Source: a virus. Taken from it: 64,000 nt of DNA. The position numbers and the translations under genes are program-made. Shown here piece after piece: positions 6,867 through 25,498 of this stretch; the first letter of the stretch is position 1; each line of letters begins with the position of its first letter. The stretch lies in the IMG/VR virus record IMGVR_UViG_3300037470_000856, positions 77,030-141,029 of that record. One strand, given 5' to 3'. The notes under the pieces were generated by a model. It worked only from the letters and a program-made list of their open reading frames with translations. It was not told where the DNA came from and made no database searches.

Positions 6867-6882
6867 TGTCTCTTCTCCTTTC

Positions 6883-7728: not shown

Positions 7729-9189
7729 CTAGCGCGAGCGGGGGAGTCCGAAGACCTCGGCGACGTCGGGAGCGGTGTCCCAGATCTTGCCGAGCTCGGC
7801 GATCTCATCGTGGGCAGCCTTGGGCATGCCCGCGACGTTGCCAAGCGACTTGGCGCCGGCGGAGGCGGCCTTGGGCTGCGGGCGCAGCTTGGGGGCGCCG
7901 GCCTTCTTGCCGCCCTTCTTCTCGTCGGAGCCGAAGTCGAAGTCGTCCTTCTCGGCCTTCTCGTCGGTGCCGGCGTCGGCGTCCTCGGGCTCCTCCTTGG
8001 ACTCCTCCTCCATCTCCTCTTCCTCGCCGCCCTTCTTGGCGGTCTTCGGGAGGTCGAGGTCGGCGTAGAGCGCGAGCAACTCGTCGTCGGCGGAGGCTTC
8101 CTTGTCGGACTCCATGAGGCCCATCGGGTCGGTGCCCGCGGTGATCTCGATGTCGTTCTCGGTCGGGTCGCCCTCGCCGGCCTTCTTCTCCGAGCCGTTG
8201 CTCTGTGCGACGACGGGGGTGTGTGCGGCGGGATCGGGGTTGACGTTGCCGCCCTCGCCCGACTGGATATCCGCGCCCTTGGCGAGGGGATCCCGGTTGT
8301 CCTCGGCCTTCTTGCCGGCCATGACGGACATCTCCTCGTCCATCTCCTCGAGCATGGCGCGGAGCATAGCCTCTTCCTCCTCTTCCTCCTCTTCCTCCTC
8401 CATGGCGCCCTTCTCGCCGGAGTAGCTGTAGTCGGCCTTGTTCTGGTCGACGCCGTCGCCGTCCATGTCCTCGGCCATGAGGTAGGCCATGAGTTCCTTG
8501 TCGCTCATGCCCTCGTCCTCGTCGTCGTCGGCGCCAAAGAAGTGGCCCATCGCCTTGACGATGCGGCCAAGCGCGCCATCGATCTTGTCGAGGCGGGCGG
8601 TCATCTCGTGAGCGGCCTTCTTGCCGCCCTCGTCGAAGAGTTTGGTGCCCTCCGACTCCTCGCCCTTCTCGAAGTCCTTCTCGAAGTCCTTGTCGTCGTC
8701 AGCATCCTCGCCGGCGAGGACGGAGAAGGTCTCCATCGCCGCCTTGAGTTTGGCGTCGTCGAGGTCCATGAGCCGCACGGCGCGGTCCTCGACCGCGCTG
8801 ACCAAGGCGTTGGGCAGCATGGCCGACGCGAGGCGGACGCACAGTGCGGCGCGCTGCTCGGCGAGCTGCTTGAGGGATGCCTGCTTGCCGCCACCCTCCG
8901 CCATCGCCTGCTCGGGCTTCTTCTGGAATTCCGAAGTGGCGGGATGGTCGAGTTTCTCCGTCGTCAGGTTGCCGGGCATCGCCGGAGACGGAGACTCGGG
9001 CTCCATCGGCTTGTGGAGGTCTTCCGCCCACGAGATAGTGTCGCCGTTCTCGTACTTGTCGGCGTCGGGATCAGGGTAATAGGCTGGGGACGCAGGGCCT
9101 TCGGTGCGGTCCACCGCAGGCATCTGCGGAGGCGGCGAAGCCTTCTTGCCCTGCTCGGCCAGTTTTCGGGTGAGTCGTTGACGTGCCAT
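7729..9189 (-). CDS. putative capsid scaffolding protein
   Basis: 486 aa, very acidic and low complexity, between protease and MCP; many KKA/KQA/KTA/KEA sites. Confidence 0.65.
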   Translation of the reverse strand: MARQRLTRKLAEQGKKASPPPQMPAVDRTEGPASPAYYPDPDADKYENGDTISWAEDLHKPMEPESPSPAMPGNLTTEKLDHPATSEFQKKPEQAMAEGGGKQASLKQLAEQRAALCVRLASAMLPNALVSAVEDRAVRLMDLDDAKLKAAMETFSVLAGEDADDDKDFEKDFEKGEESEGTKLFDEGGKKAAHEMTARLDKIDGALGRIVKAMGHFFGADDDEDEGMSDKELMAYLMAEDMDGDGVDQNKADYSYSGEKGAMEEEEEEEEEEAMLRAMLEEMDEEMSVMAGKKAEDNRDPLAKGADIQSGEGGNVNPDPAAHTPVVAQSNGSEKKAGEGDPTENDIEITAGTDPMGLMESDKEASADDELLALYADLDLPKTAKKGGEEEEMEEESKEEPEDADAGTDEKAEKDDFDFGSDEKKGGKKAGAPKLRPQPKAASAGAKSLGNVAGMPKAAHDEIAELGKIWDTAPDVAEVFGLPRSR

Positions 9190-9216: not shown

Positions 9217-12200
9217 CTAGAACCGGGTCTGCTTTCGCAGCGAAAGGATTCGCCCAAGACGCACCAAGGTCTTGGCTTCTCCCGTTTGTGGTTTGCGACC
9301 GAGCACCTCGGCACAGCGCGCGAGGTACTTATCGAGGGACGGATGCCCGTCGGTAGACCCGACCCGGAGAGCGGTCCTGTAGAGATCCCTCGAAACTTGG
9401 AAGTCGTGGGTCTGCTTGAGCCGGGCGATCCCGTCGATCAACTCCACGTCGGACCGGGCGATGCAAAGCAGCGCCTCGGTCCCGGCGGCCAGCTTGGCCA
9501 TGGCCGCCTGGTGGTTGATGTTCTCGTTGGTGGAGGTCTCGAGTTCGGCGGGCGAGGGCTCGTCCTTGTCGCCCTCGTCGCCCTGCATCTTGTCGCGGAG
9601 CTTCTTCTTGATCTTGTCGAGGACGTACTTCTCGACCGCGTCCTCGAGATCCTTCATCGGGTCCGCGTCCTCGCCCCCGCCCGGGTCGCCTGGCATCCCG
9701 GGCATGCCGCCTCCGGCGTCGTCTCCGGCGTCGTCTCCGGGAGGAGCGGTGAGCTGCGCGAGGCGAGCGTGCGCGAGGCGGGCCTGGCGACGCTCCTCGG
9801 CGAGCTCGGCCGCGGTCTTGGATCCCTCGAAGCTGACGGTCATGTCGCGCGCGGCCTTGGCCATCTCGTCCTCGCTGGCCGTCCACTGGCGCGGGGGCTC
9901 CGAGAGGAGGCGCTGCATCTGGCTGCGTGTGTCGAGGTTGATACTGTCGGGCTGCAGGATGTTGCGCATCACGGCGCCCTGGAACGCCGGGACGTCGACC
10001 CAGGATGCCTCGATGAAGGTAACGCCACCCGTGGGGTCGAGCGTCTCGTGGCCGCACAACTCGGCGACCCGAAATTTGTTGCCAAGCTGGTCGTACTCGT
10101 ACTGGCCCTTGCCATACTTGACGTGCTCGCAGTTGTGAACGGCAAGGCCCTCGACCACATATGAATGATCGCCCTCGACCCCGAAGTTGTGGACCGGACC
10201 AGAGTAGGGCTCGCAGGAGACGCCCCGAACGCGGTAAATGAGCCAGTTACCGACGCGCTTGAACCCATCGGTCACGGCCGACATCGTGACACGGGCTGTC
10301 TCCCGGTCAGAGAACCTGACCTCATCACCGAACCCTTGAGGATCGGAGACCACAAGACCGAACGAGGGGAGCCACCCACGGTGGTCGCGTACGGTAACGG
10401 AACCGTCACCGTTCACCACTTGGTCGAGGGTCGCGCTGCGACCTCCAAAGGTGACCTTCTTGTACGAGTACAAGCCGCACCGCGCGGCTAAGATGTGCAT
10501 CTGGTTCAACAGGTTGAGTGATGTAGTGGAGCCAACGATACCGACGTCCGCCTGCGTTGCATCACCGCCGAGCCACCCGAACAGGACGTGCTTCTGCACC
10601 TCAGGACTCCATCGGAGAATTGAGGGATCAAGACGTTTTTCGTGCGAATACTCGCCGCAGTACCGGAAAAAGAACTCGGCGACCTGGGCATCCATGAAAC
10701 GGACATCCACGGACCCGCTGTCCTCTGTGCTGCCGGAATTCCGGTTCCGATGCACCCGGACCGACCTGTCTGCGCTCCCCACCCACTGCCGGTTGCAAAC
10801 CTTGCACTGGTAACAGTCATCGGCCCCTTTCTTGAACCGGACGTTGTACGCGTACTCCGAGGGAGCCCGGCACCCCGGGCACATGACGTCAGAGGAGACC
10901 GACCGGCTCGTGCTACGTCGATGGACCGGAGTCACGCTGTCGCGGGCGACCAAGGTGCGCCAGTTTTCCGACGAAACCCGTCGCTCGTCGCGGCCGAACT
11001 CCTCGTTCAGGAGCTTCTCCACCTCAGCCGCGAGAGTGTCATGCTCGTGGTGGCCGAATGTGAAACTGACCCCGACCCTCTCACTGTCCCGCTTGATGAA
11101 GGATCCCTCGGCCAGGAAATAGCCAATAAGCCGCGCCCTGTTGACGGTAGCGTCGTCTGTGTTCTCCGTCTCCTGCGGGATGGGGAAAGCGAGATAGTCC
11201 CCAGCCCTGAGGTCTCTAGCCGCGACGAATTCCAAGTCCACGTCGAACAGGCGTTTATAATCCCCCATCTCCACGACGTTCACGGCATAGGGATTCGGGT
11301 TTTGCAGCCGCGTGTTGTGGCCTGGGAGGAACCGGCGCCGGAACGCCTTCACCGAACCGCGCTCGTGCTCCACCGTACGCCGAAGCGGAGCTCCACAGCC
11401 GCACGCGCAGATCTGTGCGGGTCGGAGCGTCCAGTACGGATGGTTGGGGGTGGAGCGCAATCCAACTGGGACCCCGTCGACGTCGAGCGAGATGAGATGC
11501 CCCTCGTACGGACGGCGCATTGTCTCTGTGACGGCGCCCGTCAAACCTGTGTGGGTAACGACGGCATCTCCCTCGACAATCTCCTCGATCGGCACGTACC
11601 GTCCGTCCGCCAGGAGCACACGGGTGCCGGGAGGGAAACACATCTCGGTCTCGTCCGCAGCCACGTTCCCGCACTTCGTGCAGATCGTCTCCGTGACGCT
11701 GCAGCCCATGCTCATCGTGCCCATGCGGCCCGACTCGATGTCGCGGATCAGGCTCGCGTGGCGACGGCTCGTGGCGATGAGGATGTCGACGTAGACCGAG
11801 TCGCCGATGTCGCGGGCGGCGGCGTCGATGATGCGGCCCTTGGACTGGTCCTCGATCTGGACGTGCTCCACGAAGTTGTGGGCGCCGACGAAGGTGCGGT
11901 AGCTCTTGAGCAGCACCGGGCGGTCCCACGCGTCGTGGTTGTTGTTGATGTAGATGTCGCACTTCGGGAGGATGTGGTAGTTCGCCCACCGCCGATTCAC
12001 CCGACGTCCCATCTCGCTGACGTTGCCGAGTTTGACGTTCGACACCTCGGAGGTGTCCACCGACGCCACGATGGTCGCGTGCGTCAGGAGATACTTCTCC
12101 GGGGAGAACTGGTCCTGGAGGATCTCCGACGCCTGCGCCACGAGGTTCGGCGAGCTCGAGGCGGTGCGGACGCGGCCCCTGGCACGCTGCACGAAGTTCC

Positions 12201-12264
12201 CCCAGTAGTCGATCGACCACGAGGGCTGTGTCACGTCCGCGCGGGCGTACTTGAGGAAGGCCAT
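9217..12264 (-). CDS. prohead (capsid maturation) protease with intein
   Basis: NNNHDAW...YRTFVGAHNFVEH...GRIIDA...SMGC...FIEASWVDVPA motifs of Bxz1-type maturation proteases; position upstream of scaffold and MCP. Confidence 0.8.
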   Translation of the reverse strand: MAFLKYARADVTQPSWSIDYWGNFVQRARGRVRTASSSPNLVAQASEILQDQFSPEKYLLTHATIVASVDTSEVSNVKLGNVSEMGRRVNRRWANYHILPKCDIYINNNHDAWDRPVLLKSYRTFVGAHNFVEHVQIEDQSKGRIIDAAARDIGDSVYVDILIATSRRHASLIRDIESGRMGTMSMGCSVTETICTKCGNVAADETEMCFPPGTRVLLADGRYVPIEEIVEGDAVVTHTGLTGAVTETMRRPYEGHLISLDVDGVPVGLRSTPNHPYWTLRPAQICACGCGAPLRRTVEHERGSVKAFRRRFLPGHNTRLQNPNPYAVNVVEMGDYKRLFDVDLEFVAARDLRAGDYLAFPIPQETENTDDATVNRARLIGYFLAEGSFIKRDSERVGVSFTFGHHEHDTLAAEVEKLLNEEFGRDERRVSSENWRTLVARDSVTPVHRRSTSRSVSSDVMCPGCRAPSEYAYNVRFKKGADDCYQCKVCNRQWVGSADRSVRVHRNRNSGSTEDSGSVDVRFMDAQVAEFFFRYCGEYSHEKRLDPSILRWSPEVQKHVLFGWLGGDATQADVGIVGSTTSLNLLNQMHILAARCGLYSYKKVTFGGRSATLDQVVNGDGSVTVRDHRGWLPSFGLVVSDPQGFGDEVRFSDRETARVTMSAVTDGFKRVGNWLIYRVRGVSCEPYSGPVHNFGVEGDHSYVVEGLAVHNCEHVKYGKGQYEYDQLGNKFRVAELCGHETLDPTGGVTFIEASWVDVPAFQGAVMRNILQPDSINLDTRSQMQRLLSEPPRQWTASEDEMAKAARDMTVSFEGSKTAAELAEERRQARLAHARLAQLTAPPGDDAGDDAGGGMPGMPGDPGGGEDADPMKDLEDAVEKYVLDKIKKKLRDKMQGDEGDKDEPSPAELETSTNENINHQAAMAKLAAGTEALLCIARSDVELIDGIARLKQTHDFQVSRDLYRTALRVGSTDGHPSLDKYLARCAEVLGRKPQTGEAKTLVRLGRILSLRKQTRF
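10132..11640 (-). mobile_element. intein with LAGLIDADG homing endonuclease in the protease (503 aa)
   Basis: starts CFPPGTRVLLADG, block B TPNHP, LIGYFLAEG, ends VHN followed by Cys. Confidence 0.9.
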
Positions 12265-14752: not shown

Positions 14753-17700
14753 TCAGGCCACGTCGAGCACGACGACGGGGCGAAGCGGGTCGTCCGGGTG
14801 GAACGACCGGACGTGCGCGAGCCAATCGCCAGCCATACGTCCGTGGCGACCGCGCTCAAGCCACACCTGGGCAACGCGCTCAACCGCGAAGCGGGTCGGG
14901 CCGCGCTCCTCGAAGTCGCCGAACTCGGCGGAGAATTCCTCGCCGGGAGCCTCGCCCCCGCGCGCCGGCTTCTTCTCGTCCTCGTCGCCACCCTTGTCGG
15001 CGTAGCGCTCGGCCTCGTCGCGCTTCTTGAAACTCTTGGGGACGCCGTCCTCGTTCTTGGCGCGCCAGTTCCCCTGCTCGGTCCCCCAGACGTCGCCGGG
15101 GCCGTGCTCCTCGTCGTCCTTGACCTCCTCAGAGTCCGCACTCTCGGGAGTTTCACGATCGGAGGTCTCTGCCTTCTCATGCTCCTCCCTGGAGCGTGGC
15201 TCCTTGGCCTTCTCGTCGGGGTGCGGCAGCGTCTCCTGCTCGAGCACCTCACGCTCGCCGGTCTGCACGAAGTGGTTGAGCACCGCGGAGGCAGGCGAAA
15301 TCACCACCTTGTCGAACTTGTCGCGGATCGTGTTGAGGATGGCCTTCGCCTTCTCGCGCAGTCCGGTTCCCTTCTTGGGATCGAACGTGCCCTCGACCAT
15401 CTCGAGGTCCTCAGCCGAGGGCTGCTCGCCGTTCCTCTGCGCCTCCGCGATCCGCTCCTGCGCCTCGAGCACCTTCTCCATGCGGGGCTTCATCCGGGAG
15501 GTCGCCTCGCCGAGCACCTCGGCGCGCGCCTCGGGGTCGTCGGCGTCGGCGATGCCGGCCGCCTGCATGGTGTCGCGCACGGCCCGGTCTCCCCACTGGT
15601 CGTTGAGGATGTCTTGGACCAGGAAGTCCTTCATCATCGCTCGCAGGACGTCGGGCGTGCCGTCGTTCTTCATGAGGTCGACGAGGTCCGCGTAGCCATG
15701 CTCCTCGTCGCCGCCCGTGGTGAGATCGCCGAGCTGCTCAAAATTCATGTCGTCGAGCCCCTCCTGCATCTTGCGGCGCGCCTGCTCGGCGAAGTAGTCC
15801 TCGGTCGTCCTGAACAGCTCGGACCCCTTCCCGTCCACGACCATCTGCTTGACCAGCGCGGCCATGCCCTTGCTCGGCTGCGGACGACCTGGGAGCGACT
15901 CGCCAGTCACGGCGACCTGCGCGATGTTCATGCCGGTCAAAATCGCGTTGAGCTCCTGCGCCCGGTTGGTCTCGGGATCGAGACCCTTGAGGGCCCGCGC
16001 GACCTGATCGGCCGCGCGCCTGCGCAGGGACGACGGGAGGCGCTCGAACTGCTTGAACGCCGCCTGCGCCCGCTCCGAGTACTTCTCGGAGTCCATCTCG
16101 GTGACGCCGACCGGCGTCCCTCCGATGTTCATCGGGTTGCCCACGATGCGCTCGGCGTAGCTGAGTTGTGCGAGGCGCTCCGCGAGCTCTTTCGGGTCGG
16201 TGAGGCCGTGCAGATCTCCGAACTTGGCGGCTCTCGACGCGACGTCGACGGCCTCCTCGGAGCTTGGGTCCATCTGCTTGAGATTCTTGAGCGTGTCCTG
16301 GAAATCGATCGAGAAGCTCTCGACCTGCGCCTCGTCGAGGTCGTTGAGGGCGCCGCCGATCTGCGTGGCGAGGTCGGGGGGAAGCCGCGTTTCCTTGCCG
16401 AGCATCTCCTCCATGTTGGTCTGCGCGCGCTCGACGGCGCGCTCGACCTTCTTGGCCCGCTCCTGGCGCAGCTTCTCCTCGCGCTTCTCCTTGGCGAAGC
16501 CCGGGTCCTTGCGCTCGCGCCTGAGCTCGTCGACGCGCGCCTTGGCGTCCGCGTGCTCCTCCTTCTTGTCGTCGAGCTCGTCCTGCTTGCGCCCCATCTC
16601 GCGCTGCATCTTCTGCATCGAGTCGAGTAGCTGCTGCCTGCCGGGGCCCTCTCCCATGTGAGGCAGGTACTCGTCGCGCTGCTGATTGATCTTGGACTTG
16701 AGGTCCTTGATCTCGTCGGTGAGGTCCCCCATCTGGGCCTCGATGTCGCGCATCTCGTCGCGCGCCTGCTCGAGCTCGACGTGCACGTCCTCGGTGGTGC
16801 GCTCCTTGTCCTCCTCGGTCTTCTTCCCCTTGTCGGTGCCCTCCTCCTCGGGCTGCTGCTGGCCCCGCCACTTCTCGCGGATCTTGGTCTGCTCGTCAGG
16901 GGGCAGCGAGGTGAAGCCGACGTCGTTCCCGGTCTCGGGGTGCTTGAACTTCTGGTTCTTGACCCACTCCTCGAAACTCAGGCCGCTCTTGGGCTGCACC
17001 GGGGCCTCGGCCATGACGTGGCGCAGGGCCACGCGACGCGCGACCTTGTTCCACTTCATGGACAGGTCGGGGTCTCCCTTGTCGCCGCCGCCCATGCCGT
17101 CGAGGTCAGGGTCTTCCTCGTCCAGAGTCCGGTTGTCGCGGAGGTCGTAGCGCGGAGGCTTCTTCTTGGGCTCCGTGCGGAGCATCTTCTCGACGGCCTC
17201 ATCCTCCTTCTCCGCGGGCGACTTCGTGGCCGTCTTCGCCTGCGGAGTCCTGATCATCGCGTCCTGAAAGCGGAAGTCCTTGTTGCGCCCCTTGTTGGGC
17301 CCCTTGTTGGGCACGAAGCCCATGCCGCGGTACCACTTCTCGAGGTGCTTCTTCGACGAGCCGAACTCGGAGGTCGGGGTGAACGTCACGGTCACGCCGT
17401 TGCTGTCAACCCAGTCGAGCGTCTCCTCCATTGCTCTCGAGGCGCTGCCCGACCCGCGCCTGTCCTCGTTCACCCGGATCAGGTCCACGGACATGTGGCG
17501 GTGCTGCGGACGGTAGGCGGCGTGGGAATCTGTGAGGCTGTGCCTCTCGATCATAGACTTGCGCAGAGCGTCCCACTCCTCGCGGCTCGGGGGCTCGCGC
17601 TCGGGCGCGTCCTCGTCGTCGACGCCCATGACCCTGGCCTCCCACTCTTCGCGGGACAGAGCGGGACCTCCCTCTCGGCGCTTGCGCTGCACGTAGGCGT

Positions 17701-20700
17701 CGTAGGTCGGAGCGGCGAGCCTCGCGTTCGGGCGCGGCCGGTACTGCTCCTCGGGCGAATTGTCGACGTGCCGGCACATGTCGCAGCGTGTCCCGCACCG
17801 CCAGTACTCCTCGGAGTCAAAGGGGTAGCCGTCGTCGAGACCGTAGTGGTCGAGCAGCACGTTGAGGCAGCGCTCGCAGCTCTTCGCGGCGACCATGATG
17901 GCGTCGCCGACGTCCCACTGTCCGCTGCGCACCATGGTGTTGACGAGGTCGGTCGGGTACGACGACTCGCCCGCGCCTACGTCGGTGCTCGTGCCATCCT
18001 CGTTCAGACGTAGGATGCTGTGGTGCAAGACGTGGGGGAACTGGCTGTGCATGTACTCGGCGCCCTCGGGGGGCTGCCACGTCTCGTACTCGCCGAGGTC
18101 GCCGCCGCCGAGGCGGTTGCCATGGGCGTCCTCGTACCAGAGGATCGTGAAAATCTGGGGGTCGAACTCAAGCCCCTCGACGTGAGGGCGCGGACGCTCG
18201 TGCTCTCGGGCGATCCGGTAGACGGCCGGCGCGTTGCGGAGCCACCACCGACGGTCTCGGGACACGAGGACCGGGGCAACCCCGGCGTGCGCCAAAATGA
18301 GGCGCTCGGTGTCGGTGCCGAGGAGCGCCGCCGTGCGCATGATTTTGGGGTCCGACGCCTTCCTCGTGTGGCTCTCGTTGACGGTGCCGTCCTTCATGTA
18401 GCCGTCCTCCAAACCCGGCACGAGGTACTGGCTGCGAAGGGTCGAAGGATCGTGCCCCACGGCCTCCGCCGTCGCTTCGAGGGCCTTCTTGAACTCGTCC
18501 TTGAGTTTCTTCTCGCGCTCCTTTCTGTCCTCGGGGAGTTTGCCCTTACGGACCTTGCGGAGTTGCGCCTTCATCTCGCGGTTGGCGTGGAACCCACGGA
18601 GGTCCTTCGCGGTGATGTCAAGCGGCTCGAGGTACTCGTTGACCTCCTGCGCCGAGACGCTCAGGACGCAGTCGTTGGGCTTCTTGCCCTTGCACGCCTC
18701 CTTGAGCGCCGAGACAACTCGCGGGTTACTGATCTTCTTCTTCTGCTCGACGCCCGACTTGCCGACGTAGGAGACCGTGACGGAGCCCCGGCCGAGGGTG
18801 ATGTGCTTGACGCGCCAGGTTGTGACGCCGAAATGGCCCTCCTTGGCGCTGTCGTCGTTCCCGACGCGCTCAAACGTCTCGTCCATGAGGCCCACGGCCA
18901 ACGCGAGATCGCGGGTCTTTTCGTCCTTCGACTTCACGTCCTTGCGGACCTTGGTCTGGAGTTTCTTCATCTGGCGTCGCAGCTTCTCGACGCGCTCCGC
19001 CTTCTTGCGGTTGCGGTCGGCCACCTGACGGTCGCTGTACTCGTAGACCGTCATCTCGTCCCCGTCCTTGGTCTTGACCTTCTTCTTAGACTTGTAGCGG
19101 ACGGCGATGGCGGAGCACGTCGCCATCTTGCCCAGGTCAGGCTCGCGGGCCTCCATCTTGTCGCGGTAGCGGAACACGCGGACGGGGATCTTAGGCTCGC
19201 GATCATCGGGCAGCAGGTTGCGACGCCGCACCACCTCCGCGTGCTCAGGGACGAGGTACAGGAACAGCGCGGGGTGCGTGGTGTCGATGGTGAGCTGGCT
19301 CGTCGTCCGCATCTTGTCGGTGACGCGAACCGGGTTGAAGGGGCTGTCGGCGTCGTGAATCGCCTTGACGAGGGCCACCGCGGCGGCCTCGGGGCGTCGC
19401 ACGTCCTGAAGGCGCTTCTGGGCCTCCCACCGGCGCACGATCGAGCTGACGTAGTCGTCGCCGTGCGTGTAGCCGGCGTCCGGGTAATTCACACCGTGGT
19501 TCGTCCGCGTGTTGACGCGGTCCGAATCGAGCTCAGTGACATGCGCAGGGTGATTCTTGCTGCACTCGATGCTGAACAGCTTGTTGCCGTCCGCCACAAA
19601 CGTGTGTCCCCGGATGCCGCCGTTGTCGGTGCGCAGGGATCCCACGGCGTCGTCGATGTTGTCAAACGCGAGCGCGCGGTAGATCTTGGGGCCGTCCTTG
19701 GAGGTCAAGGGCCTCTTGCCCTTGCCCTTCCCCGGCGACTTTTTCTTGCCCTCGGCCTCGTCGCGTACGACCATGAGGGTGGTGTTGACGGCCGCGATGC
19801 CGTGCTCGTTGACCCCCTCGAGGTAGCCGGTGACCGTGTCGAGGACGACGGCCATCTCGGTGCCGTCCTTCTCGATGTGCACGATCTCGAGCTTCGCGTC
19901 GTAGGCTCGGTCGCGGTTCTTGAGCAGGCACAGGCTGTCGCCGAAACGGCGCCCCGCGATGATGCACGCCTCCCTCAGCATGGCGGTCTTCTTGACGGAC
20001 CTTCCCGAGTCGAGCACGACGATCTCGGACGTGTACGGCTTGCCTCGCACCTCGGTCACCGTGACGACCCCGTCGTAGCCGTCCTTCTGGAGCGCCTTGG
20101 TCAGCGCCTGCCCGCGCTTGCGGTACCGTCGCTCGAGCTGCGCCTTCCACGAGTTGTCGTCGTAAATCAGCCCGTCGGGGTCGGTGTTGACGGCGAGCAC
20201 GAGAGGGTTGTCGAGTTTCACGGTGCCCGTGACGTATCCGGGCAGCGGGTCGTCGTCGTCGTCGTCGGTAGTTTTGTGCGTGACGTAGAACCCCGCGGGC
20301 TCGATCTTCTGCTGGTACGGGTCCGACCCCTTCGGGGCCCGCGGTGCCTTCTCGGTGTTGCGCAGGAACTCAAACTCGACCGGCGTGCCCGTCTCGAACT
20401 TGCGACCGCGCTCCTCGACGGTGCGGAGGGGCATCTCGTCGGACCTCCGCGAACTACTCCAGCGCTCGTAGACCTTCCGCTGTTCGGCGTCCGGCAGCGA
20501 GTCGAAGACGACGTCGTTGCCCGTGTCGGGGTTGCGGAAACGCTGCCCCTTCACCAAGTCGAGAAACTCCCTGGAGTACGCAGCCTGCTTGCGCCGGTCG
20601 GCTCGCCAGATCTTGTAGAGACCGATGACGCGGTTCTTCTTGCGGCCCTTGGGGATCGGCTCGATCTCCACGGACGGCACCCCGCGATCGTCGTCGAACA

Positions 20701-20812
20701 GGCGCACGACCCGGCCGCGCTTGTTCTTGCCGAACAGCACCTCGTCGCCGACCTTGAAGTCGTCCTGCGCTGCCAGGTGGCGCATGGCCACGCGTGCGAC
20801 GAGAGCACTCAC
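14753..20812 (-). CDS. giant polyvalent protein (~2019 aa): SH3-like, ART-like, Ntn-hydrolase, topoisomerase IB, Zn domain, GNAT, coiled coil
   Basis: GTG 20812 overlaps the upstream TGA; GFYVT..LDNPL..GYDGV..EIVVL (ART-PolyVal-like); CIIAG..KNRDR (Ntn); RVGN/GKSG/KDLR/GH/SQYL (TopoIB catalytic set); RRGSG..LEKWYRGMGF (GNAT). Confidence 0.8.
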   Translation of the reverse strand: MSALVARVAMRHLAAQDDFKVGDEVLFGKNKRGRVVRLFDDDRGVPSVEIEPIPKGRKKNRVIGLYKIWRADRRKQAAYSREFLDLVKGQRFRNPDTGNDVVFDSLPDAEQRKVYERWSSSRRSDEMPLRTVEERGRKFETGTPVEFEFLRNTEKAPRAPKGSDPYQQKIEPAGFYVTHKTTDDDDDDPLPGYVTGTVKLDNPLVLAVNTDPDGLIYDDNSWKAQLERRYRKRGQALTKALQKDGYDGVVTVTEVRGKPYTSEIVVLDSGRSVKKTAMLREACIIAGRRFGDSLCLLKNRDRAYDAKLEIVHIEKDGTEMAVVLDTVTGYLEGVNEHGIAAVNTTLMVVRDEAEGKKKSPGKGKGKRPLTSKDGPKIYRALAFDNIDDAVGSLRTDNGGIRGHTFVADGNKLFSIECSKNHPAHVTELDSDRVNTRTNHGVNYPDAGYTHGDDYVSSIVRRWEAQKRLQDVRRPEAAAVALVKAIHDADSPFNPVRVTDKMRTTSQLTIDTTHPALFLYLVPEHAEVVRRRNLLPDDREPKIPVRVFRYRDKMEAREPDLGKMATCSAIAVRYKSKKKVKTKDGDEMTVYEYSDRQVADRNRKKAERVEKLRRQMKKLQTKVRKDVKSKDEKTRDLALAVGLMDETFERVGNDDSAKEGHFGVTTWRVKHITLGRGSVTVSYVGKSGVEQKKKISNPRVVSALKEACKGKKPNDCVLSVSAQEVNEYLEPLDITAKDLRGFHANREMKAQLRKVRKGKLPEDRKEREKKLKDEFKKALEATAEAVGHDPSTLRSQYLVPGLEDGYMKDGTVNESHTRKASDPKIMRTAALLGTDTERLILAHAGVAPVLVSRDRRWWLRNAPAVYRIAREHERPRPHVEGLEFDPQIFTILWYEDAHGNRLGGGDLGEYETWQPPEGAEYMHSQFPHVLHHSILRLNEDGTSTDVGAGESSYPTDLVNTMVRSGQWDVGDAIMVAAKSCERCLNVLLDHYGLDDGYPFDSEEYWRCGTRCDMCRHVDNSPEEQYRPRPNARLAAPTYDAYVQRKRREGGPALSREEWEARVMGVDDEDAPEREPPSREEWDALRKSMIERHSLTDSHAAYRPQHRHMSVDLIRVNEDRRGSGSASRAMEETLDWVDSNGVTVTFTPTSEFGSSKKHLEKWYRGMGFVPNKGPNKGRNKDFRFQDAMIRTPQAKTATKSPAEKEDEAVEKMLRTEPKKKPPRYDLRDNRTLDEEDPDLDGMGGGDKGDPDLSMKWNKVARRVALRHVMAEAPVQPKSGLSFEEWVKNQKFKHPETGNDVGFTSLPPDEQTKIREKWRGQQQPEEEGTDKGKKTEEDKERTTEDVHVELEQARDEMRDIEAQMGDLTDEIKDLKSKINQQRDEYLPHMGEGPGRQQLLDSMQKMQREMGRKQDELDDKKEEHADAKARVDELRRERKDPGFAKEKREEKLRQERAKKVERAVERAQTNMEEMLGKETRLPPDLATQIGGALNDLDEAQVESFSIDFQDTLKNLKQMDPSSEEAVDVASRAAKFGDLHGLTDPKELAERLAQLSYAERIVGNPMNIGGTPVGVTEMDSEKYSERAQAAFKQFERLPSSLRRRAADQVARALKGLDPETNRAQELNAILTGMNIAQVAVTGESLPGRPQPSKGMAALVKQMVVDGKGSELFRTTEDYFAEQARRKMQEGLDDMNFEQLGDLTTGGDEEHGYADLVDLMKNDGTPDVLRAMMKDFLVQDILNDQWGDRAVRDTMQAAGIADADDPEARAEVLGEATSRMKPRMEKVLEAQERIAEAQRNGEQPSAEDLEMVEGTFDPKKGTGLREKAKAILNTIRDKFDKVVISPASAVLNHFVQTGEREVLEQETLPHPDEKAKEPRSREEHEKAETSDRETPESADSEEVKDDEEHGPGDVWGTEQGNWRAKNEDGVPKSFKKRDEAERYADKGGDEDEKKPARGGEAPGEEFSAEFGDFEERGPTRFAVERVAQVWLERGRHGRMAGDWLAHVRSFHPDDPLRPVVVLDVA

Positions 20813-23800
20813 CGGCGCAGCTCCTCGATCACCCGGTCGGTCAAGTGTTGTCCCTTGACCGCGAGCTTGGGGTCCTGGAGGATGATGTGACGAGCCGTCG
20901 GCACGATGTGACGACGGTCGGGCCCGGGCAGCTTGAGGACGTCGATGATGCGGGGGTTGTCCACGGGCGGCTTGATGAGTTTCTCGACGAGCGCGACAGC
21001 GTCCTTCTCGGGCATCGAGACGGTCAGGGCTCGCAGGCGGTCGCGTCCCGACGGATCGAGGAAGGAGATCGGCGTGGAGGCGGGCACGCCCAGCTCGAGC
21101 AGGTCGAGCAAGAACTGCACCTTTCGGTTGCGCCGGAGCTGGTTCGCCATGTACGCGGCGAAGGGCTTCTGCTCCTGGATCATCTCGGACACCACGTCGA
21201 GCAGCCCGAGCATCTTCATCTCCTTGAGGGAGCGCCGGGCGGTCGGCTGGTTGAGGACGTCGTTGACGAGGATGGACGCGACGGCCTCCCATGGCATGCG
21301 CTTGAGCTTGGGCGCGTTCTTGCGGATCGACCGGATCACGTCGGGAGGGATCTTGAACCCGTACTTGCCCGTGAACTTGATAGCCCGGAGCATGCGCGTG
21401 GGGTCGTCGGAAAACACCCGGTCGGGCTCCTGCGGGCACTTGATGACGCGGCGCTTGAGGTCGGCTCGGCCGCACCCCGTCAGGTCGATGATCTCCGCCT
21501 TGTCGGGCCCGTGCGCCAGGTCGAGCATGCGCCACAGCAGCGTGTTGTGGACTACCACCCCGTTTGCAACGAAGGCCGGCTCGATCCCGTCACCCATCGA
21601 GATGTCGAATACGTCTTGGTCTCCGGCGTCCTCAACCGAGACGACCTCAACGTACTGGTATCCCAGTTCAAACAACCGTTGGAGTTTGACATGTTCACTT
21701 GCGCTGATAGCCATGAGGCTCGCCAGGAACTCCCCGAAATCACCGCGAACGTAAGCGTCGTGCAGAAGTCGTTTCGGACGGCGGAGCGCCTCCAAAATAC
21801 CGCTTTCGGCGACCTCACCACCCTCGTCCGTTCGGTACATCGAAGGTCCTTGGTTGTTTCCGACCCGTGTCCTGCGTCCCTTCAAAAACCCTTGGAGGTG
21901 TTCTTTCGGGACCCCATACCGGTTCCGGCTCTTGCAGGTCTGCTGCGCGTAGTCGAACCCCTTGGTCACCATCCACGGCTGGATCTTTTCCCACAGGAGG
22001 GCCGAGTCCACGGCATTGAGGTAGACGAACCTGTCCTTCACCTTGCTCAGGACGCCGTGAGCACCGAGGAGCGCCTGCAACTGCTGTCGGACATGAGGCG
22101 ACGCCGAGCAGAAGGTGATACGACCCGTGTCAAGTCGAATGGAGCCGTCACCCTCGAGGTAGGCGGCCAAGAAGGCCCACTGACTCCGCTCGTCGGCTTG
22201 GAGGATGGACCAAGGCACCACCTTGTGGTGAGAAGGAGACTTTCCATCCCGCGCACCTCCGCAGTACAGGCCCAGTTCATCCAGCCACCCCACAACTGCC
22301 TTGCTGTCGGCGTAGATGTCGTAGCCGTCTGAGTTCGCGACGAACTCGACGCCCCGCAAGACCCTCACCGAGCCCTTCTCGATCACCTTGTTCTGCAAAG
22401 GTTGGAACCCGAACACAGTGTTGAAACACTCGACGTAGCGGGAAATGAGAGCCCGATCCGAGTTGCTGAATGACACCCGCTTGTGTGTGTTCGATCCCTC
22501 AGCCACCACGCACCCGATCACGAACGCCAGCTCGGGCGTCATCGCTTCGGGTTTGTGCGCCGCCTTGAGAGTGCCGCGCTTCGGCTGTGCGGGGTCTTTC
22601 AACTCCAAAGTCAGCGGCTCCTGCCTCGTCACCTGCCGCACGGGAACGCAGAGAAGGTCGCCCTCTTCAAGTTGATCGGCCTGCACCCAAACGTGGTTGT
22701 GCCCTCGGAGGACCAAGACTGGATGGTGGTGCGTGCAGGAGAAGGAGTGGCCCCACTCGGTCGTCACCCGAAGCGTAGGGGCACAGCCGCTGTACTGCCA
22801 CCCCACAGCCACCGCGGGACCGTCTTTCCCCGCCACGGTCAAATTGAGATCCTGATGGTCTCCCTTCTCTCGAGAGGCGATCTGGTCGATGCGAAGGATG
22901 CCCCTCTCCGTAGGAATGAGGGTGTCTCCGGCCATGCAGTTGAAGGTGAACTCCCGGCGCAGGACGTCCTCCTCGATCGTCGCGGGGGCGACCGAGTGGG
23001 GCTTGTACCCCTTGCCGCCGCTGCCCCCGTAGCTCTCCTTGCGGGCGTTGGCGATCTCGAGCACCTCGCCGTCGAGATCCTCGCCGCCCACGATCCACGG
23101 CCCCTTCACGGTCAGGATGGCGACGCCGTACTGGTTCGTCGTTACGTTGGTCGGCGCCGGGATGTTCCGGGCGATCTGCTTGGCGAGCCAGTCGGAGTCG
23201 CGGCCGGCCTTGGTCATGTCGATGACGATGTCGATGTCCTTGATCGGCTGGTTGATCAGAAAGTTGCGCACAGCCCCGCCCACGACGTAGGTGTCCCGGC
23301 CCACCCCGAGGCGACGGGTGAGATCGGACAGCCACTTCATCAGGGCCACGTTTTTGCGATGGACGGAGCCTTCCACGGTCAAGGATGCTACCCGACGCCG
23401 GATCCACGTCGAGGCGACCTTCGCCGCGGAGGGCCCCATCTTGAGCTTGTGGACCTCGGGGAGCCCCCAAACCTCCATCTCGTCGAAGGCCCATGATCCC
23501 TCGGGCACGGGGCCGTCCCACTCGGCGTCCATGCCGGGCATGTAGGCGAGGGTGACGTGGGGCTTGTACTCGGGGAAGCTGTCCCCGACCTCAATGCCCG
23601 CGTCGTGGAGCTCCTGCTTGACGCGGTGCTTGAAGCCCGACAGATCCTTGTCGAACTCGACGGCGACGTGCGGGACGCGGCGATCCTTGTCGTGGTGATC
23701 GAAGTACTCGAGTCCGTTGAGCCGCGCCTCGCACTTGGGCCACCACTTGCGGCAGCACTCGCGGAGCACCTCGACGAGCTTCTCCTGCTGCTTCTCGCCC

Positions 23801-24915
23801 TTGAAGTCGCCGATGTAGAGGAACGTGACGTGGCTCGGAGAGTCGTCGTTCTCGCCCAGGCTCGGAAACTTCTTCGCCAGGTCCTTGGGCAGCGGGATGA
23901 ACATGCCGACGGACTCGCCGTCCCCGGTCTTGCTTCCCGTGGCCTTGGCTGTCTTGCCCTTGGGGTACTCGCCGTACTTCTCGCCCACGACGCCGTCGGG
24001 CACCCTGCGCTCGCGCACGATGTCCTTCGGCATCTCGGACTTCTCGTTCTTCCAGGCCTCGAAATGCTTCTCGCAGAACCAGGCGCGCCCGCGACCGTCT
24101 GCCCAGATGCCCTCGCGCTCGGGCGGCTTCTCGCATCCGGCGTGCATGCACTTCGACATGCTGTGACGGCTGGCGGCGTATCTCCAGAGCTGCGCCACCC
24201 GGATCGCGGTTTTCCGGCTGCCTCCGCGCCACTCCGCGAACTCCTTCTGCACCTGGGCGCGGAAGTGCGGACTCGTTTTGAGCAGCGTGGAGGCAGCTAC
24301 CTCGGGGTAGCGCTTCCGCGTCTGCGGATTGGTGTTCAGGACCTTCTTCTTGCCACCGTCGTAGCGTTCCGCGAGGAACTGCTCCCACTCGGCGCTGGTG
24401 GGCTTGCCAGGGTCCTTGGGAGGCTCCTTCTTGGGAGGCTCCTTCTTGGGCTCGGGCTTTTTCTTCGGCTGCTCCTCGGAGGCCGGCCCCACACGCTCTC
24501 CGTGGAGCGCGTTCTTGCCTCGGCCCAACTGGCTCGACGGGCGGTCCACGAGGGCGAACAGGCGTCCTCGATCCACAAATCTCAGACCGTGCTTCGGGGC
24601 CACGTCCGAGAATTCCATGAGGGGGCCCGAGAACAGGGAGGAGCCGTCGGGCTTCTTGATGTGCACCTCGGTGTTCGTCACCTTGTCGGCCCACGCCTTG
24701 GCCTCGTCCTCCGTCTTGAACCCTTGCAAGACGGCGCCGCCCCTCTGCTGGTGCGCGATCGCCTTGTGCCGGTCCACCACGCGGACGGGGCCCGAGGGCC
24801 ACTGGTTCGGGTTCACGTCGGCGACGACGGCGTAGTTGGCCTTCGCCTTCGCCACCCGCACGCGCAGCCAAGAGTTTGCGGCTTTCGTGAAGTTCTGAAT
24901 TGCGGAACGCGGCAC
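20809..24915 (-). CDS. multidomain protein: Zn finger + 2H phosphoesterase + CCA-adding/poly(A) polymerase-type nucleotidyltransferase with intein
   Basis: HVTF and HVTL 2H motifs; VVGGAVRN..KDIDI..EDVLRREFTFN..FSDDPTRMLRAIKF class II NTase motifs. Confidence 0.85.
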   Translation of the reverse strand: MPRSAIQNFTKAANSWLRVRVAKAKANYAVVADVNPNQWPSGPVRVVDRHKAIAHQQRGGAVLQGFKTEDEAKAWADKVTNTEVHIKKPDGSSLFSGPLMEFSDVAPKHGLRFVDRGRLFALVDRPSSQLGRGKNALHGERVGPASEEQPKKKPEPKKEPPKKEPPKDPGKPTSAEWEQFLAERYDGGKKKVLNTNPQTRKRYPEVAASTLLKTSPHFRAQVQKEFAEWRGGSRKTAIRVAQLWRYAASRHSMSKCMHAGCEKPPEREGIWADGRGRAWFCEKHFEAWKNEKSEMPKDIVRERRVPDGVVGEKYGEYPKGKTAKATGSKTGDGESVGMFIPLPKDLAKKFPSLGENDDSPSHVTFLYIGDFKGEKQQEKLVEVLRECCRKWWPKCEARLNGLEYFDHHDKDRRVPHVAVEFDKDLSGFKHRVKQELHDAGIEVGDSFPEYKPHVTLAYMPGMDAEWDGPVPEGSWAFDEMEVWGLPEVHKLKMGPSAAKVASTWIRRRVASLTVEGSVHRKNVALMKWLSDLTRRLGVGRDTYVVGGAVRNFLINQPIKDIDIVIDMTKAGRDSDWLAKQIARNIPAPTNVTTNQYGVAILTVKGPWIVGGEDLDGEVLEIANARKESYGGSGGKGYKPHSVAPATIEEDVLRREFTFNCMAGDTLIPTERGILRIDQIASREKGDHQDLNLTVAGKDGPAVAVGWQYSGCAPTLRVTTEWGHSFSCTHHHPVLVLRGHNHVWVQADQLEEGDLLCVPVRQVTRQEPLTLELKDPAQPKRGTLKAAHKPEAMTPELAFVIGCVVAEGSNTHKRVSFSNSDRALISRYVECFNTVFGFQPLQNKVIEKGSVRVLRGVEFVANSDGYDIYADSKAVVGWLDELGLYCGGARDGKSPSHHKVVPWSILQADERSQWAFLAAYLEGDGSIRLDTGRITFCSASPHVRQQLQALLGAHGVLSKVKDRFVYLNAVDSALLWEKIQPWMVTKGFDYAQQTCKSRNRYGVPKEHLQGFLKGRRTRVGNNQGPSMYRTDEGGEVAESGILEALRRPKRLLHDAYVRGDFGEFLASLMAISASEHVKLQRLFELGYQYVEVVSVEDAGDQDVFDISMGDGIEPAFVANGVVVHNTLLWRMLDLAHGPDKAEIIDLTGCGRADLKRRVIKCPQEPDRVFSDDPTRMLRAIKFTGKYGFKIPPDVIRSIRKNAPKLKRMPWEAVASILVNDVLNQPTARRSLKEMKMLGLLDVVSEMIQEQKPFAAYMANQLRRNRKVQFLLDLLELGVPASTPISFLDPSGRDRLRALTVSMPEKDAVALVEKLIKPPVDNPRIIDVLKLPGPDRRHIVPTARHIILQDPKLAVKGQHLTDRVIEELRR
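21544..22938 (-). mobile_element. intein with LAGLIDADG endonuclease inside the CCA-adding enzyme (465 aa)
   Basis: starts CMAGDTLIPT, THHHP, VIGCVVAEG and FLAAYLEGDG, ends VVHN followed by Thr. Confidence 0.9.
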
Positions 24916-24961: not shown

Positions 24962-25498
24962 CTAAAACCCGCTTGGCCGTGATCTTCGCCGGGCCTGTCG
25001 GGCGGCTTCCTCAGCGGCCGCGGCCTCCTGCTCGAGCATCTCGGCCTCGCTCTCCGCGAGCTCGCGGGCGTGCTCCACCTGATCCCTTGCGTGCCGTGCC
25101 TGCTTCCGGGCCGTCTCGGCCCGACCCTCGGCGATCTCGGCCTTGGCTTCGCCGAACGACTGCACCCGCATCTTGCGGCCTCCCGTCATTGGAGAATGCA
25201 CATGGTCGGGAGGTACCGGAACGAAGGGCCCCGTCAGGTTCCTCGGATCGGCCGGCACCGTGATTCCCCCCATGTCGGGAATCGGAGGGCCTTCGTGGTA
25301 GGCCCCGCGCTCGGGGTATTCCTCGGCCACGCGATGACCTTCTCGGGCCTGCTCCATCTGGCGCTGGATGACGCCCCTGGTCGGCGCGAGCACCTCGACG
25401 ATGTGCTCCTCGGGATCCCCGTCTCCGGGCATCATGGAGGTGCGGTTCTCGATGAGTGCGTGGAGGGTCTCAATCTCCTCGTCCAAAAGGTCGGTCAC
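24962..25498 (-). CDS. hypothetical protein
   Basis: 178 aa, start overlaps the portal stop. Confidence 0.6.
   Translation of the reverse strand: MTDLLDEEIETLHALIENRTSMMPGDGDPEEHIVEVLAPTRGVIQRQMEQAREGHRVAEEYPERGAYHEGPPIPDMGGITVPADPRNLTGPFVPVPPDHVHSPMTGGRKMRVQSFGEAKAEIAEGRAETARKQARHARDQVEHARELAESEAEMLEQEAAAAEEAARQARRRSRPSGF

Follow-up and report, generated by a model that had tools for sequence, protein, structure and literature searches.

Previous work defined the polyvalent proteins of phages and conjugative elements (Iyer, Burroughs, Anand, de Souza and Aravind 2017; PMC5512222). Other work described the capsid targeting sequences of T4 and the ejection proteins of phiKZ and SPN3US, which are cut at a common motif by the prohead protease (PMC5694885). 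In surveys, effector domains fused to MuF or to the portal protein are regarded as head cargo (PMC5512222, PMC9503650). The window analyzed here, a stretch of 64,000 nucleotides, comes from a 141-kb huge-phage fragment that carries a 2019-aa gene with the portal on one side and the prohead protease on the other.

The gene and its slot in the head module

The gene and its neighbors are as follows; a slash marks a candidate cut.

25495..27477, minus strand: portal protein, with a conserved N-terminal extension ending FRAKVA/AS
20809..24915, minus strand: upstream sister cargo gene, a 2H/LigT phosphoesterase plus a CCA/poly(A)-type nucleotidyltransferase, interrupted by an intein
14753..20812, minus strand: whole gene of the putative modular cargo protein, 2019 aa, GTG start, stop codon 14753-14755
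9217..12264, minus strand: prohead protease, intein-containing here, with conserved R-T-A/S and MAKAA/R sites
7729..9189, minus strand: acidic 486-aa protein in the scaffold position
5991..6866, minus strand: major capsid protein, start Met at 6866, matching orthologues

The order terminase, portal, cargo genes, 2019-aa gene, small proteins, prohead protease, scaffold and capsid is conserved: four other loci with DNA sequence repeat it, and so does a fifth locus that was listed without sequence. GenBank LR745208.1 shares it, and its capsid protein is 89% identical. The original prediction called the place between portal and protease unusual, but the gene holds the same slot in all related loci fetched, making this an ordinary head-cargo slot; we take the interval to be that of SPP1 gp7 and Mu F-type minor head proteins. 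The protease was assigned by PHROG matches only, and Pfam and PDB searches with it gave no match.

The minus-strand open frame spans 14753..21535 and is longer than the gene itself. Database protein P0003 (2010 aa) begins at ATG 20785. We prefer GTG 20812 because the 2019-aa protein and its orthologues have in common the N-terminal peptide M-x(3-8)-RVA-x-[RK]-H-L, and because the GTG shares 4 nt with the TGA of the upstream gene (GTGA), an overlap that recurs in the orthologous gene at the same five loci.

Modules of the 2019-aa protein

We read the protein as a chain of independently folding modules, namely an N-domain, repeat A, an ART-fold domain, a Cys-Ntn hydrolase, TopoIB, a 4-Cys domain, a short GNAT and a constant C-terminal half made up of charged block, repeat A, coiled coil and helical region. 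Domain residue numbers follow P0003, the first base of residue i being 20785-3(i-1).

20786..20812, minus strand: N-terminal 9-residue peptide ending RVA, tag and candidate first cut site, conserved at orthologue N-termini
20588..20785, minus strand: small conserved N-terminal domain (earlier labeled SH3-like, a putative fold), terminating in KQA
20441..20572, minus strand: repeat A copy 1 (F..LVK.Q.F.NP.TGN.V.F.SLP..EQ)
19982..20434, minus strand: ART-fold domain, residues 118-268, of a family not in Pfam
19139..19966, minus strand: Cys-Ntn hydrolase, C45/AAT-like, residues 274-549; nucleophile Cys274 (codon start 19966), preceded by R-E-A
18341..19120, minus strand: TopoIB catalytic domain, residues 556-815 (R640, K676, R730, H778, Y787)
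17750..18328, minus strand: conserved 4-Cys domain, CxxC (970/973) ... CxxC (1001/1004)
17234..17713, minus strand: optional module with short GNAT acetyltransferase, fold at about residues 1067-1180, motif A RRGSGSA at 1109
17018..17227, minus strand: highly conserved charged block (TKS.AE.EDE...KKKPPRYDLRDNRTL...KWNKVARRVALRH), start of the constant C-terminal half, ending with two RVA-type sites
16847..16978, minus strand: repeat A copy 2
16391..16795, minus strand: coiled-coil segment
15116..16390, minus strand: conserved helical C-terminal region without known family
14756..15106, minus strand: C-terminal tail with W..AKN..G...F....A..YA motif, acidic stretch, FAVERVAQVW tag and conserved HPDDP.RP end

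The TopoIB segment matches Pfam PF01028 (E 1.6e-27) and, in the PDB, archaeal TopIB 6z01 (2.4e-13) and variola 2h7f (2.5e-8). R640, K676, R730, H778 and Y787 align to variola R130, K167, R223, H265 and Y274, and this pentad is nearly invariant across the family, so that a topoisomerase IB with a complete R-K-R-H-Y set is firmly predicted. The module retains a mere stub of the N-terminal DNA-binding domain, the variola alignment beginning at residue 68.

A Cys-Ntn hydrolase of C45/AAT type is likewise a well supported prediction. Cys274 is present in 26/26 aligned rows with the Ntn domain (25 orthologues and the query), and PF03417 (AAT/C45) was matched by 17/33 members, the query segment itself falling slightly short of the Pfam cut-off at E 2.2e-4. 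Stand-alone homologues open with MKKEAC.. or MC...

The ART-like domain is widespread (877 representative clusters) and conserves [R/H]142-N-T, E162, Y167, Y208, W213-K214, D238, T242 and E254, and among 40 members there were 0 Pfam matches. Its AF2 model (pLDDT 93.6) found almost exclusively ADP-ribosyltransferase folds by VIA-align, at a modest best Z of 5.8, while Foldseek gave E > 0.2. The distant homologues P0035 and P0036, related to two modules, bear LPD22, LPD23 and ART-PolyVal domains, which define the polyvalent class. In P0036, however, ART-PolyVal (PF18760) lies at 768-830 and the query match at 564-713, and that identity was rejected. The earlier ART-like call thus stands as to the predicted fold, though not as membership of Pfam ART-PolyVal, and the segment appears to be a separate family, ART by its modeled fold alone.

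The four cysteines of the 4-Cys domain are nearly invariant in the family and probably form a Zn site. For the GNAT module, the best structural match was AcrVA5 (Z 9.0, rmsd 3.4 Å, 94/95 residues aligned), and sequence matches included giant phage proteins annotated DarB-like or PLxRFG. A short GNAT is supported at the level of the fold. The two copies of repeat A are 48% identical across 44 aa, and the coiled-coil segment matched exclusively coiled-coil proteins.

Most of what the original prediction said of the protein was borne out by these results. It had proposed a polyprotein of 2000 aa, and there is indeed a single intact ORF, of 2019 aa; domain matches and gene order agree with its modular multi-enzyme protein inside the head module. 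Its calls of a TopoIB with the full catalytic set, an Ntn hydrolase, a GNAT, a twice-occurring repeat A and a coiled coil were all upheld.

Junction motifs and their possible meaning

The linkers carry K/R at -3 and A/G at -1 of the next module, with a free middle residue, often as RVA-x-R-[Y/H/W]. When counts were anchored on independently conserved residues, the Ntn junction had K/R at -3 in 20/20 and A/G at -1 in 20/20, and the C-terminal block junction 24/25 for each position; K/R was found in 18/23 cases at the Zn domain, 18/26 at TopoIB and 7/8 at GNAT. The middle residue was variable in all junction classes. Across the roughly 30 orthologues in related huge phages, modules are added, dropped or replaced precisely at these linkers, the extra ones being NUDIX, GGACT/AIG2, 2H, RNA ligase, InPase and HAD_SAK_1. 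The junction motifs had been noted and the swapping at them foreseen, and both were found among the orthologues.

Sites with this motif occur in other head genes too. The scaffold keeps five K/R-x-A sites across five phages despite poor overall conservation, and the portal site FRA[KR]VA/A and the protease sites [KR]TA/[ST] and MAKAA/[RS] are conserved. The sister cargo gene bears tags of the same kind as the 2019-aa protein, RVAQLW and KVASTW. Genome-wide, 9 instances of R[VI]A..[HWY] were counted vs 1.7 expected, and 4/9 fall in the 2019-aa protein. [KR]-x-[AG] is degenerate (0.025 per residue), and in a control, conserved columns of this type were no more numerous than several other residue-class pairs; the cleavage reading therefore relies on motif position. 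Some conserved instances sit within domain cores, e.g., FERVG and VGKSG in TopoIB, and cleavage after Ala with K/R at P3 is not known from any prohead protease.

The reading we favor, with moderate confidence, is that of a modular polyvalent head-cargo protein that is ejected early. The 2019-aa protein would be loaded into proheads, where the prohead protease would cut at the [KR]-x-[AG] junctions, freeing separate enzymes within the capsid and uncovering the N-terminal Cys of the Ntn hydrolase, and the released pieces would exit with the DNA on infection. TopoIB, being ATP-independent, might then serve the incoming genome as a swivel or relax host DNA, and the ART-fold and GNAT modules might modify host or defense proteins. 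Counting against this reading, no MuF, portal-fusion or LPD domain was detected in the 2019-aa protein, and the ART fold match is modest.

It is possible, if rather unlikely, that the protein is instead packaged or injected uncut and works as a single giant multi-enzyme chain in the manner of N4 virion RNA polymerase or P1 DarB. The linker motif would then be a structural or docking element, e.g., a short helix binding scaffold, portal or DNA, or else a recombination footprint between module-coding segments. Packaging without processing is described for polyvalent proteins such as N4 vRNAP (PMC5512222), the motif count is unexceptional, and the RVA-x-R-[YHW] tag, which is found at the extreme ends of stand-alone Ntn homologues and of the separate LigT gene, suits an address tag equally well. 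Against this, fixed -3 and -1 positions around a free residue form the pattern of a protease site and less that of a helix, the conserved motif is shared by scaffold and protease, which are classical substrates, and it always stands directly ahead of the Ntn nucleophile Cys, which needs an N-terminal position for activity.

We doubt that the polyprotein processes itself. On that view the prohead protease would play no part: inside the capsid, or once injected, the Ntn module would cleave at its own N-terminus as well as at the remaining [KR]-x-A junctions. Autoproteolysis ahead of the nucleophile is the established means of self-activation in C45/Ntn enzymes, the site before Cys274 has the junction-type form, and the module is present in most orthologues. 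C45 enzymes, however, are not known to cleave other peptide bonds in trans. Peptidase domains have been proposed to process polyvalent proteins themselves (PMC5512222), but the Ntn module is missing from P0026, P0030, P0032-P0034 and the 508-aa LR745208.1 form, all of which still carry junction motifs, and the motif is also kept in scaffold, portal and protease. Further, where the junction has [KR]-x-A-C, stand-alone Ntn homologues at greater distance show x-x-E-C or Met-Cys, so the motif is lineage-specific and not needed by the fold.

That the protein is no virion cargo, but a late-expressed multi-enzyme of the cytoplasm that handles the genome or repairs RNA and whose location in the head operon is incidental, seems improbable. 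Neighboring and swapped modules are RNA-repair-like (2H/LigT, CCA-adding enzyme, RNA ligase, HAD_SAK_1, NUDIX), a topoisomerase could aid replication or packaging, and a search for a MuF or portal fusion gave nothing. Yet the portal-protease slot is strictly conserved, with starts overlapping by 4 nt, the protein has terminal tags and site motifs in common with scaffold, portal and protease, its GNAT module has homology with portions of giant proteins of virion type, and surveys show frequent packaging of ART, 2H and Nudix domains into heads (PMC9503650). An assembly chimera or spurious long ORF, for which only the metagenomic origin of the fragment speaks, can be dismissed, given a third-position GC of 0.86 over the whole ORF, conserved synteny, and orthologues from independent JGI, ENA and Logan assemblies with unchanged module order, including P0004 at 76% identity across 80% of length.

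Comparison with known systems

A TopoIB carried by virions has a precedent in vaccinia, whose enzyme rides in the core of the particle and supports early transcription. The phage module shares fold and catalytic pentad with the poxvirus enzyme, but most of the N-terminal DNA-binding domain is missing from it, it forms part of a polyprotein, and by sequence it is nearer to archaeal TopIB 6z01. P1 DarB (~2255 aa), a packaged antirestriction enzyme, is likewise giant; it is head-loaded, injected and protects incoming DNA. DarB is a methyltransferase-helicase whose loading requires DarA, Hdf and DdrA. We found no homology of the 2019-aa protein to the DarB catalytic domains, and the "DarB-like antirestriction" label of phage proteins matched by the GNAT module is annotation only. 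AcrVA5, the anti-CRISPR GNAT that acetylates Cas12a, is also a short GNAT without the N-terminal part of the fold, but at 12% identity the common fold does not imply a common target.

As with T4 internal proteins and Alt, and with phiKZ and SPN3US (PMC5694885), there is a short N-terminal peptide ending in a protease motif, here a candidate one; one motif spans capsid, scaffold, portal and protease, with several sites per substrate; and the enzymes that travel in the head and are ejected, or here would be, include an ART, in our case predicted from the modeled fold. The known motifs, however, end in Glu (L/I-x-E, S/A/G-x-E) and the candidate is [KR]-x-[A/G], and the cargo of those phages consists of separate gene products, whereas up to eight modules lie here in one chain, which cleavage would divide.

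The polyvalent framework, suggested at the outset, fits. As in the published class (PMC5512222), many unrelated effector domains share a polypeptide, the genes adjoin portal and terminase, ART and GNAT modules are neighbors, shuffling is extensive, and delivery with the DNA is predicted. The present family differs in that no MuF, LPD or metallopeptidase module was detected in the 2019-aa protein, in an ART-fold domain other than PF18760, and in a junction motif shared with scaffold, portal and protease, which is missing from the published description. It is centered on TopoIB and a Cys-Ntn hydrolase, terms absent from the text of PMC5512222 save for one reference title. In sum, the best reading of the 2019-aa protein is a new, topoisomerase-centered version of the polyvalent-protein class.

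Gene extent and setting in the head module

The main reading frame is open on the minus strand to 21535, and the GTG at 20812 overlaps the upstream TGA by 4 bases. Orthologues begin with M-x(3-8)-RVA-x-[RK]-H-L, the same short peptide that opens the main protein, and the 4-nt overlap was seen at the orthologue start in four related loci with DNA and in one locus listed without DNA. Because of this overlap, the shared N-terminal peptide and the same arrangement at related loci, GTG 20812 is the likely start, and the gene extent of the original prediction, 14753-20812, held up. Residue numbers below follow P0003, the database version of the protein, which is 9 residues shorter at the N-terminus than the 2019-aa product. 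Independent assemblies from JGI, ENA and Logan contain about 30 large orthologues, carried by contigs that reach 618 kb; P0004 is the closest, with 76% identity across 80% of the length. These orthologues rule out an assembly chimera as the origin of the frame.

The source record is 141 kb long with a CheckV completeness of 31%, so the window, its final 64 kb, comes from a fragment of a huge phage. The DNA has a GC content close to 64%, and all genes at 1-49 kb lie on the minus strand.

Genes of the head module, in minus-strand reading order
28248-31535, minus strand: large terminase with an intein, first in the order
25495-27477, minus strand: portal, after the terminase
between the portal and the 1368-aa gene, minus strand: 178-aa gene
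20809-24915, minus strand: 1368-aa 2H/LigT and CCA-type nucleotidyltransferase protein with an intein, directly upstream of the main gene
14753-20812, minus strand: main gene, TopoIB multi-module protein
between the main gene and the protease, minus strand: two or three small genes
9217-12264, minus strand: prohead protease with an intein
between the protease and the major capsid protein, minus strand: acidic 486-aa protein in the scaffold position
5991-6866, minus strand: major capsid protein, last in the order

An intein-free protease orthologue matched the PHROG "head maturation protease" family at 1.8e-13; the N-extein of the window's protease gave no PDB match in a sequence/profile search. 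The place between portal and protease had been called unusual in the original prediction. This was not borne out, as the slot is the customary place of head-internal cargo; SPP1 gp7 and Mu F sit in the same slot. MuF and portal fusions with effector domains have been described (PMC5512222, PMC9503650).

The upstream gene at 20809-24915 (minus strand) is itself multi-module. It combines an N-terminal part and a Cys-rich stretch with two enzymes: a 2H/LigT phosphoesterase, which has two H-x-T motifs, and a CCA/poly(A)-type nucleotidyltransferase, interrupted by an intein that contains a LAGLIDADG endonuclease. Among related phages, these modules occur as separate genes (locus L002), in a different fusion (L003) or attached to a Fic domain (L005). 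Three inteins lie within 25 kb of the head module (large terminase, 28248-31535; nucleotidyltransferase, 20809-24915; protease, 9217-12264), and the protease orthologues of loci L004 and L005 (537 and 483 aa) have none. The gene immediately downstream of the capsid gene, at 3356-5872 (minus strand), encodes an 838-aa fusion of a LAGLIDADG endonuclease with an N6/N4 DNA methylase. The longest capsid frame (5991-7037, minus strand) starts at 7037; the orthologues and that of GenBank LR745208.1 start at the Met equivalent to 6866 (291-292 aa), and the 57 upstream codons, rich in Pro, Ser and Arg, are probably not translated. Downstream of the main gene, some 345 nt (14407-14752) contain no ORF; in L002, L003 and L004 the orthologue is likewise followed by a gap, of about 300-345 nt. 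On its coding strand, the 345-nt gap showed neither a terminator nor a sigma-70-like promoter.

Modules of the main protein

The original prediction had named a TopoIB with a complete R-K-R-H-Y set, an Ntn hydrolase, an ART-like domain, a GNAT, two copies of repeat A and a coiled coil. The TopoIB, the two repeats and the coiled coil were recovered firmly, the GNAT as a fold, the Ntn hydrolase as a well-supported call, and the ART-like domain as a probable fold but not as a member of the Pfam ART-PolyVal family. The original prediction also had a Zn domain and, at the N-terminus, a putative SH3-like domain.

Residues 556-815 are firmly assigned by sequence as a type IB topoisomerase catalytic domain. 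They match PF01028 with 96.8 bits against a cut-off of 23.7 (E 1.6e-27), and the family profile matched archaeal TopIB 6z01 at 1.3e-19, the variola enzyme at 1.3e-14 and the human enzyme at 1e-10 in the PDB. R640, K676, R730, H778 and Y787 align with variola R130, K167, R223, H265 and Y274, and this catalytic pentad is nearly invariant among 25 family members. The N-terminal DNA-binding domain of the poxvirus and bacterial enzymes is absent: the alignment starts at variola residue 68 and Deinococcus residue 74-77, and only about 25 residues, a stub of that domain, separate the module junction from the alignment start. The TopoIB and the charged block that follows it are the constant core of the family.

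The module at residues 274-549 fits a Cys-Ntn hydrolase of the C45/AAT type. We make this call because Cys274 is kept in 26/26 aligned rows (25 orthologues plus the query), stand-alone homologues start MKKEAC.. or MC.., and the KNRDR, RTNHG and SS..R blocks are also kept, all of which fit such an enzyme. The query segment scored 21.4 bits against PF03417 (AAT/C45), below the 23.2 cut-off (E 2.2e-4); the same family was matched by 17 of 33 family members at E <= 0.01, the best at 2.4e-6. The module had no PDB sequence match.

Residues 118-268 were modelled with a pLDDT of 93.6, and the model points to an ART-fold domain whose enzymatic activity is putative. About 35 of its 39 VIA-align matches were ART-fold proteins, among them SAIP (Z 5.8), NatT (5.1) and diphtheria toxin (5.0), as well as PARPs, ParT and MbcT; all had Z < 8, about 4-5.8, and Foldseek gave E >= 0.2. 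Conserved in the family are residue 142 (R in 30, H in 8, K in 2), followed by N-T, Y167 (38/40), Y208 (40/40) and E254 (39/39); the [R/H]-N-T, the two Tyr and the Glu of a "SEIVV" strand would be compatible with an ART site. The family comprises 877 representative clusters at E <= 0.001 and has no Pfam entry. Its members (19982-20434, minus strand, in the main gene; P0038-P0186 elsewhere) include many free proteins of 140-160 aa, others being embedded in giant proteins of 2000-4000 aa.

An Atlas feature search of the ART-like domain leaned to clusters bearing PF18760 (ART-PolyVal) at 0.93. That identity was rejected because none of 40 members matched PF18760 or any other ART Pfam family, and because in P0036, a distant homologue, the stretch homologous to the query domain (564-713) lies outside its PF18760 (768-830). 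A cyanophage A4 pre-ejectosome chain (9k3a_B) also aligned with the model, at Z 4.8 and an rmsd of 5.6 Å, and was not counted as evidence.

For the GNAT module (about 1067-1180), every top Foldseek match was a GNAT (probability 0.97-1.0), and VIA-align ranked AcrVA5, an anti-CRISPR acetyltransferase of 95 residues, first (Z 9.0), with dozens of GNATs behind it at Z 6-8. The acetyl-CoA motif A (Q/R-x-x-G-x-G/A) is present as RRGSGSA at residue 1109, and the six orthologues with an aligned copy of the module keep it as [RQA]-R-G-x-G-x-A. The query matched Pfam weakly (E 0.048), and the homologous part of the distant P0035 matched Acetyltransf_1 at 6.6e-5.

Between TopoIB and GNAT lies a putative Zn domain (820-1012) with a nearly invariant CxxC...CxxC pair. 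The family profile against the PDB, an Atlas feature search and a joint Zn+GNAT model all left it without a recognised fold or family; GNAT matches filled both structure hit lists of the joint model. The two copies of repeat A share 48% identity across 44 residues. The coiled coil and the helical C-terminal half matched coiled-coil proteins only, and the whole-family profile against the PDB gave nothing beyond TopoIB and coiled-coil noise. A MuF-like identity of the C-terminal half was considered and found no Pfam or PHROG support. Near the C-terminus (14756-15106, minus strand) is a mini-motif, W..AKN..G....F......A..[YW]A, also found near the N-terminus of the upstream gene (24600-24780, minus strand; ..GFKTEDEAKAWADK) and in the family members P0024 and P0034. 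This could be one more mini-module that the proteins share.

Module borders, tag and exchange

Module borders carry a [KR]-x-[A/G] motif. The junction statistics were anchored on independently conserved residues, namely the Ntn Cys, the T of TKS, the G of GT.TER, the Y of RYKSKK and the P of xPxY. In each junction class, K or R is typical three positions ahead of the next module and A or G immediately ahead of it, the middle residue and the rest of the linker being variable. K/R at -3 was found in 20/20 rows for the Ntn junction, 24/25 for the C-terminal block, 18/23 for Zn, 18/26 for TopoIB and 7/8 for GNAT. A fuller form, R-V-A-x-R-[Y/H/W], hereafter the tag, occurs at the N-terminus, before TopoIB, twice near residue 1250 and near the C-terminus, and stand-alone Ntn homologues and a separate LigT gene carry the same tag at their ends. 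Genome-wide, R[VI]A..[HWY] was observed 9 times against 1.7 expected, with 4 of the 9 in the main protein.

The motif is shared with head proteins. The scaffold, otherwise poorly conserved, has [KR]-x-A fully conserved at five places in five phages; the protease has it fully conserved at two places in five phages; and the N-terminal extension of the portal ends FRA[KR]VA|A, conserved in four phages. The tripeptide [KR]-x-[AG] is degenerate (0.025 per residue), and some conserved instances fall within domain cores. In a count control on the scaffold and family alignments, conserved [KR]-x-[AG] columns were no more numerous than several other residue-class pairs. Because this test gave no enrichment, only the position-anchored statistics are relied on, and the evidence for the junction motif is positional and comparative rather than a count statistic.

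Modular swapping at motif sites, expected in the original prediction, was confirmed by the orthologue comparison: BLAST breakpoints between query and orthologues fall at module borders (residues ~69, 117, 269, 550, 815, 1010 and 1185). The ART-fold and GNAT modules are absent from many orthologues, and others carry NUDIX, GGACT/AIG2, 2H, RNA ligase, InPase or DUF5661 modules as replacements. LR745208.1, a published 485-kb uncultured phage, belongs to the same lineage, its capsid protein being 89% identical to the window's. Its head module has only a short form of the family, a 508-aa protein of HAD_SAK_1 plus TopoIB (L006 8467-9993), with junctions ARNVA|AKY and LKQA|TKT and a C-terminal tag TVASRW. 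HAD_SAK_1 is the 'Swiss Army Knife' RNA-repair HAD.

A third copy of repeat A, with the tag before it, opens a 1222-aa protein elsewhere in the genome (G000:C1:59048-62716, minus strand, outside the window), which has 44.6% identity over 92 aa to query 1257-1343 (2019-aa numbering) and ends with RRVARRY, 12 residues ahead of its stop. It looks like another cargo-type protein with the same address-like modules.

A candidate packaging and processing route, and its parallels

The main protein would be loaded into the prohead and cut by the prohead protease after [KR]-x-[A/G] into module-sized enzymes, and the released pieces would be ejected together with the DNA. We infer loading, cutting and ejection alike because the N-terminal peptide ending in a site, the site at every module border and in scaffold, portal and protease, and the conserved slot resemble what is seen in T4, phiKZ and SPN3US. 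The cut ahead of Cys274 would also create the N-terminal nucleophile of the Ntn hydrolase; the Cys could equally be freed by the autoproteolysis typical of the Ntn family. More speculative than any of these steps is what the enzymes would do afterwards. TopoIB, needing no ATP, might act as a swivel on the entering >400-kb genome or relax host DNA. The modules encoded next door or swapped in among orthologues (2H, CCA-adding enzyme, RNA ligase, HAD_SAK_1, NUDIX, and Fic in L005) would point to counter-defence and RNA repair.

The observation behind the original prediction is confirmed, and its reading as an injected toolkit is partly supported; packaging and injection we infer. In sum, the domain architecture is firm; how the protein would be packaged and processed is a specific, testable and as yet unproven model. 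The boldest form of the model, to which we give somewhat less than an even chance, is that one peptide code, RVA-x-R-[Y/H/W] with R-V-A as the prohead-protease site, addresses, loads and cuts exchangeable capsid enzymes, so that fusion behind the tag would mark a protein as injected cargo. The Ntn hydrolase would then be activated only by the maturation cut, and the constant payload would be a virion-borne TopoIB, the first in a bacteriophage.

In vaccinia, TopIB is a component of the virion core. No description of a TopoIB in phage virions or jumbo phages was found in the literature searched, subscription journals apart. If the model is right, an ATP-independent TopoIB is delivered with the genome, for which poxviruses are so far the only virion precedent. 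A lineage without a cultured member would also gain a testable code for cargo addressing and cleavage, its packaged proteome becoming readable from metagenomic sequence, and the ART-fold family, with its 877 clusters and no Pfam entry, and the AcrVA5-like short GNAT would be flagged as candidate early-acting modifiers of host or defence.

The ejection proteins of phiKZ and SPN3US are cut by the prohead protease at one shared motif (PMC5694885). The terminal peptide of the main protein, its repeated candidate site and the occurrence of that site in scaffold, portal and protease resemble these proteins and the T4 capsid targeting sequences (PMC5694885). Like polyvalent proteins (PMC5512222), the main protein has at least two unrelated effector domains in one phage polypeptide and is linked to portal-terminase packaging genes, a genomic link present in the window and at related loci. 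The polyvalent reading stands as to effector domains and genomic link, but the signature accessory domains (MuF, LPDs, MPTase) were absent from the query at E <= 0.1 and present only in the distant P0035 and P0036. The main protein is built, moreover, around a TopoIB and an Ntn hydrolase, two enzymes not mentioned in PMC5512222. It is a topoisomerase-centred variant of the polyvalent class, new as such, and, if the model is true, it takes the concept of polyvalent proteins to the largest phages and gives it a payload so far unreported in that setting.
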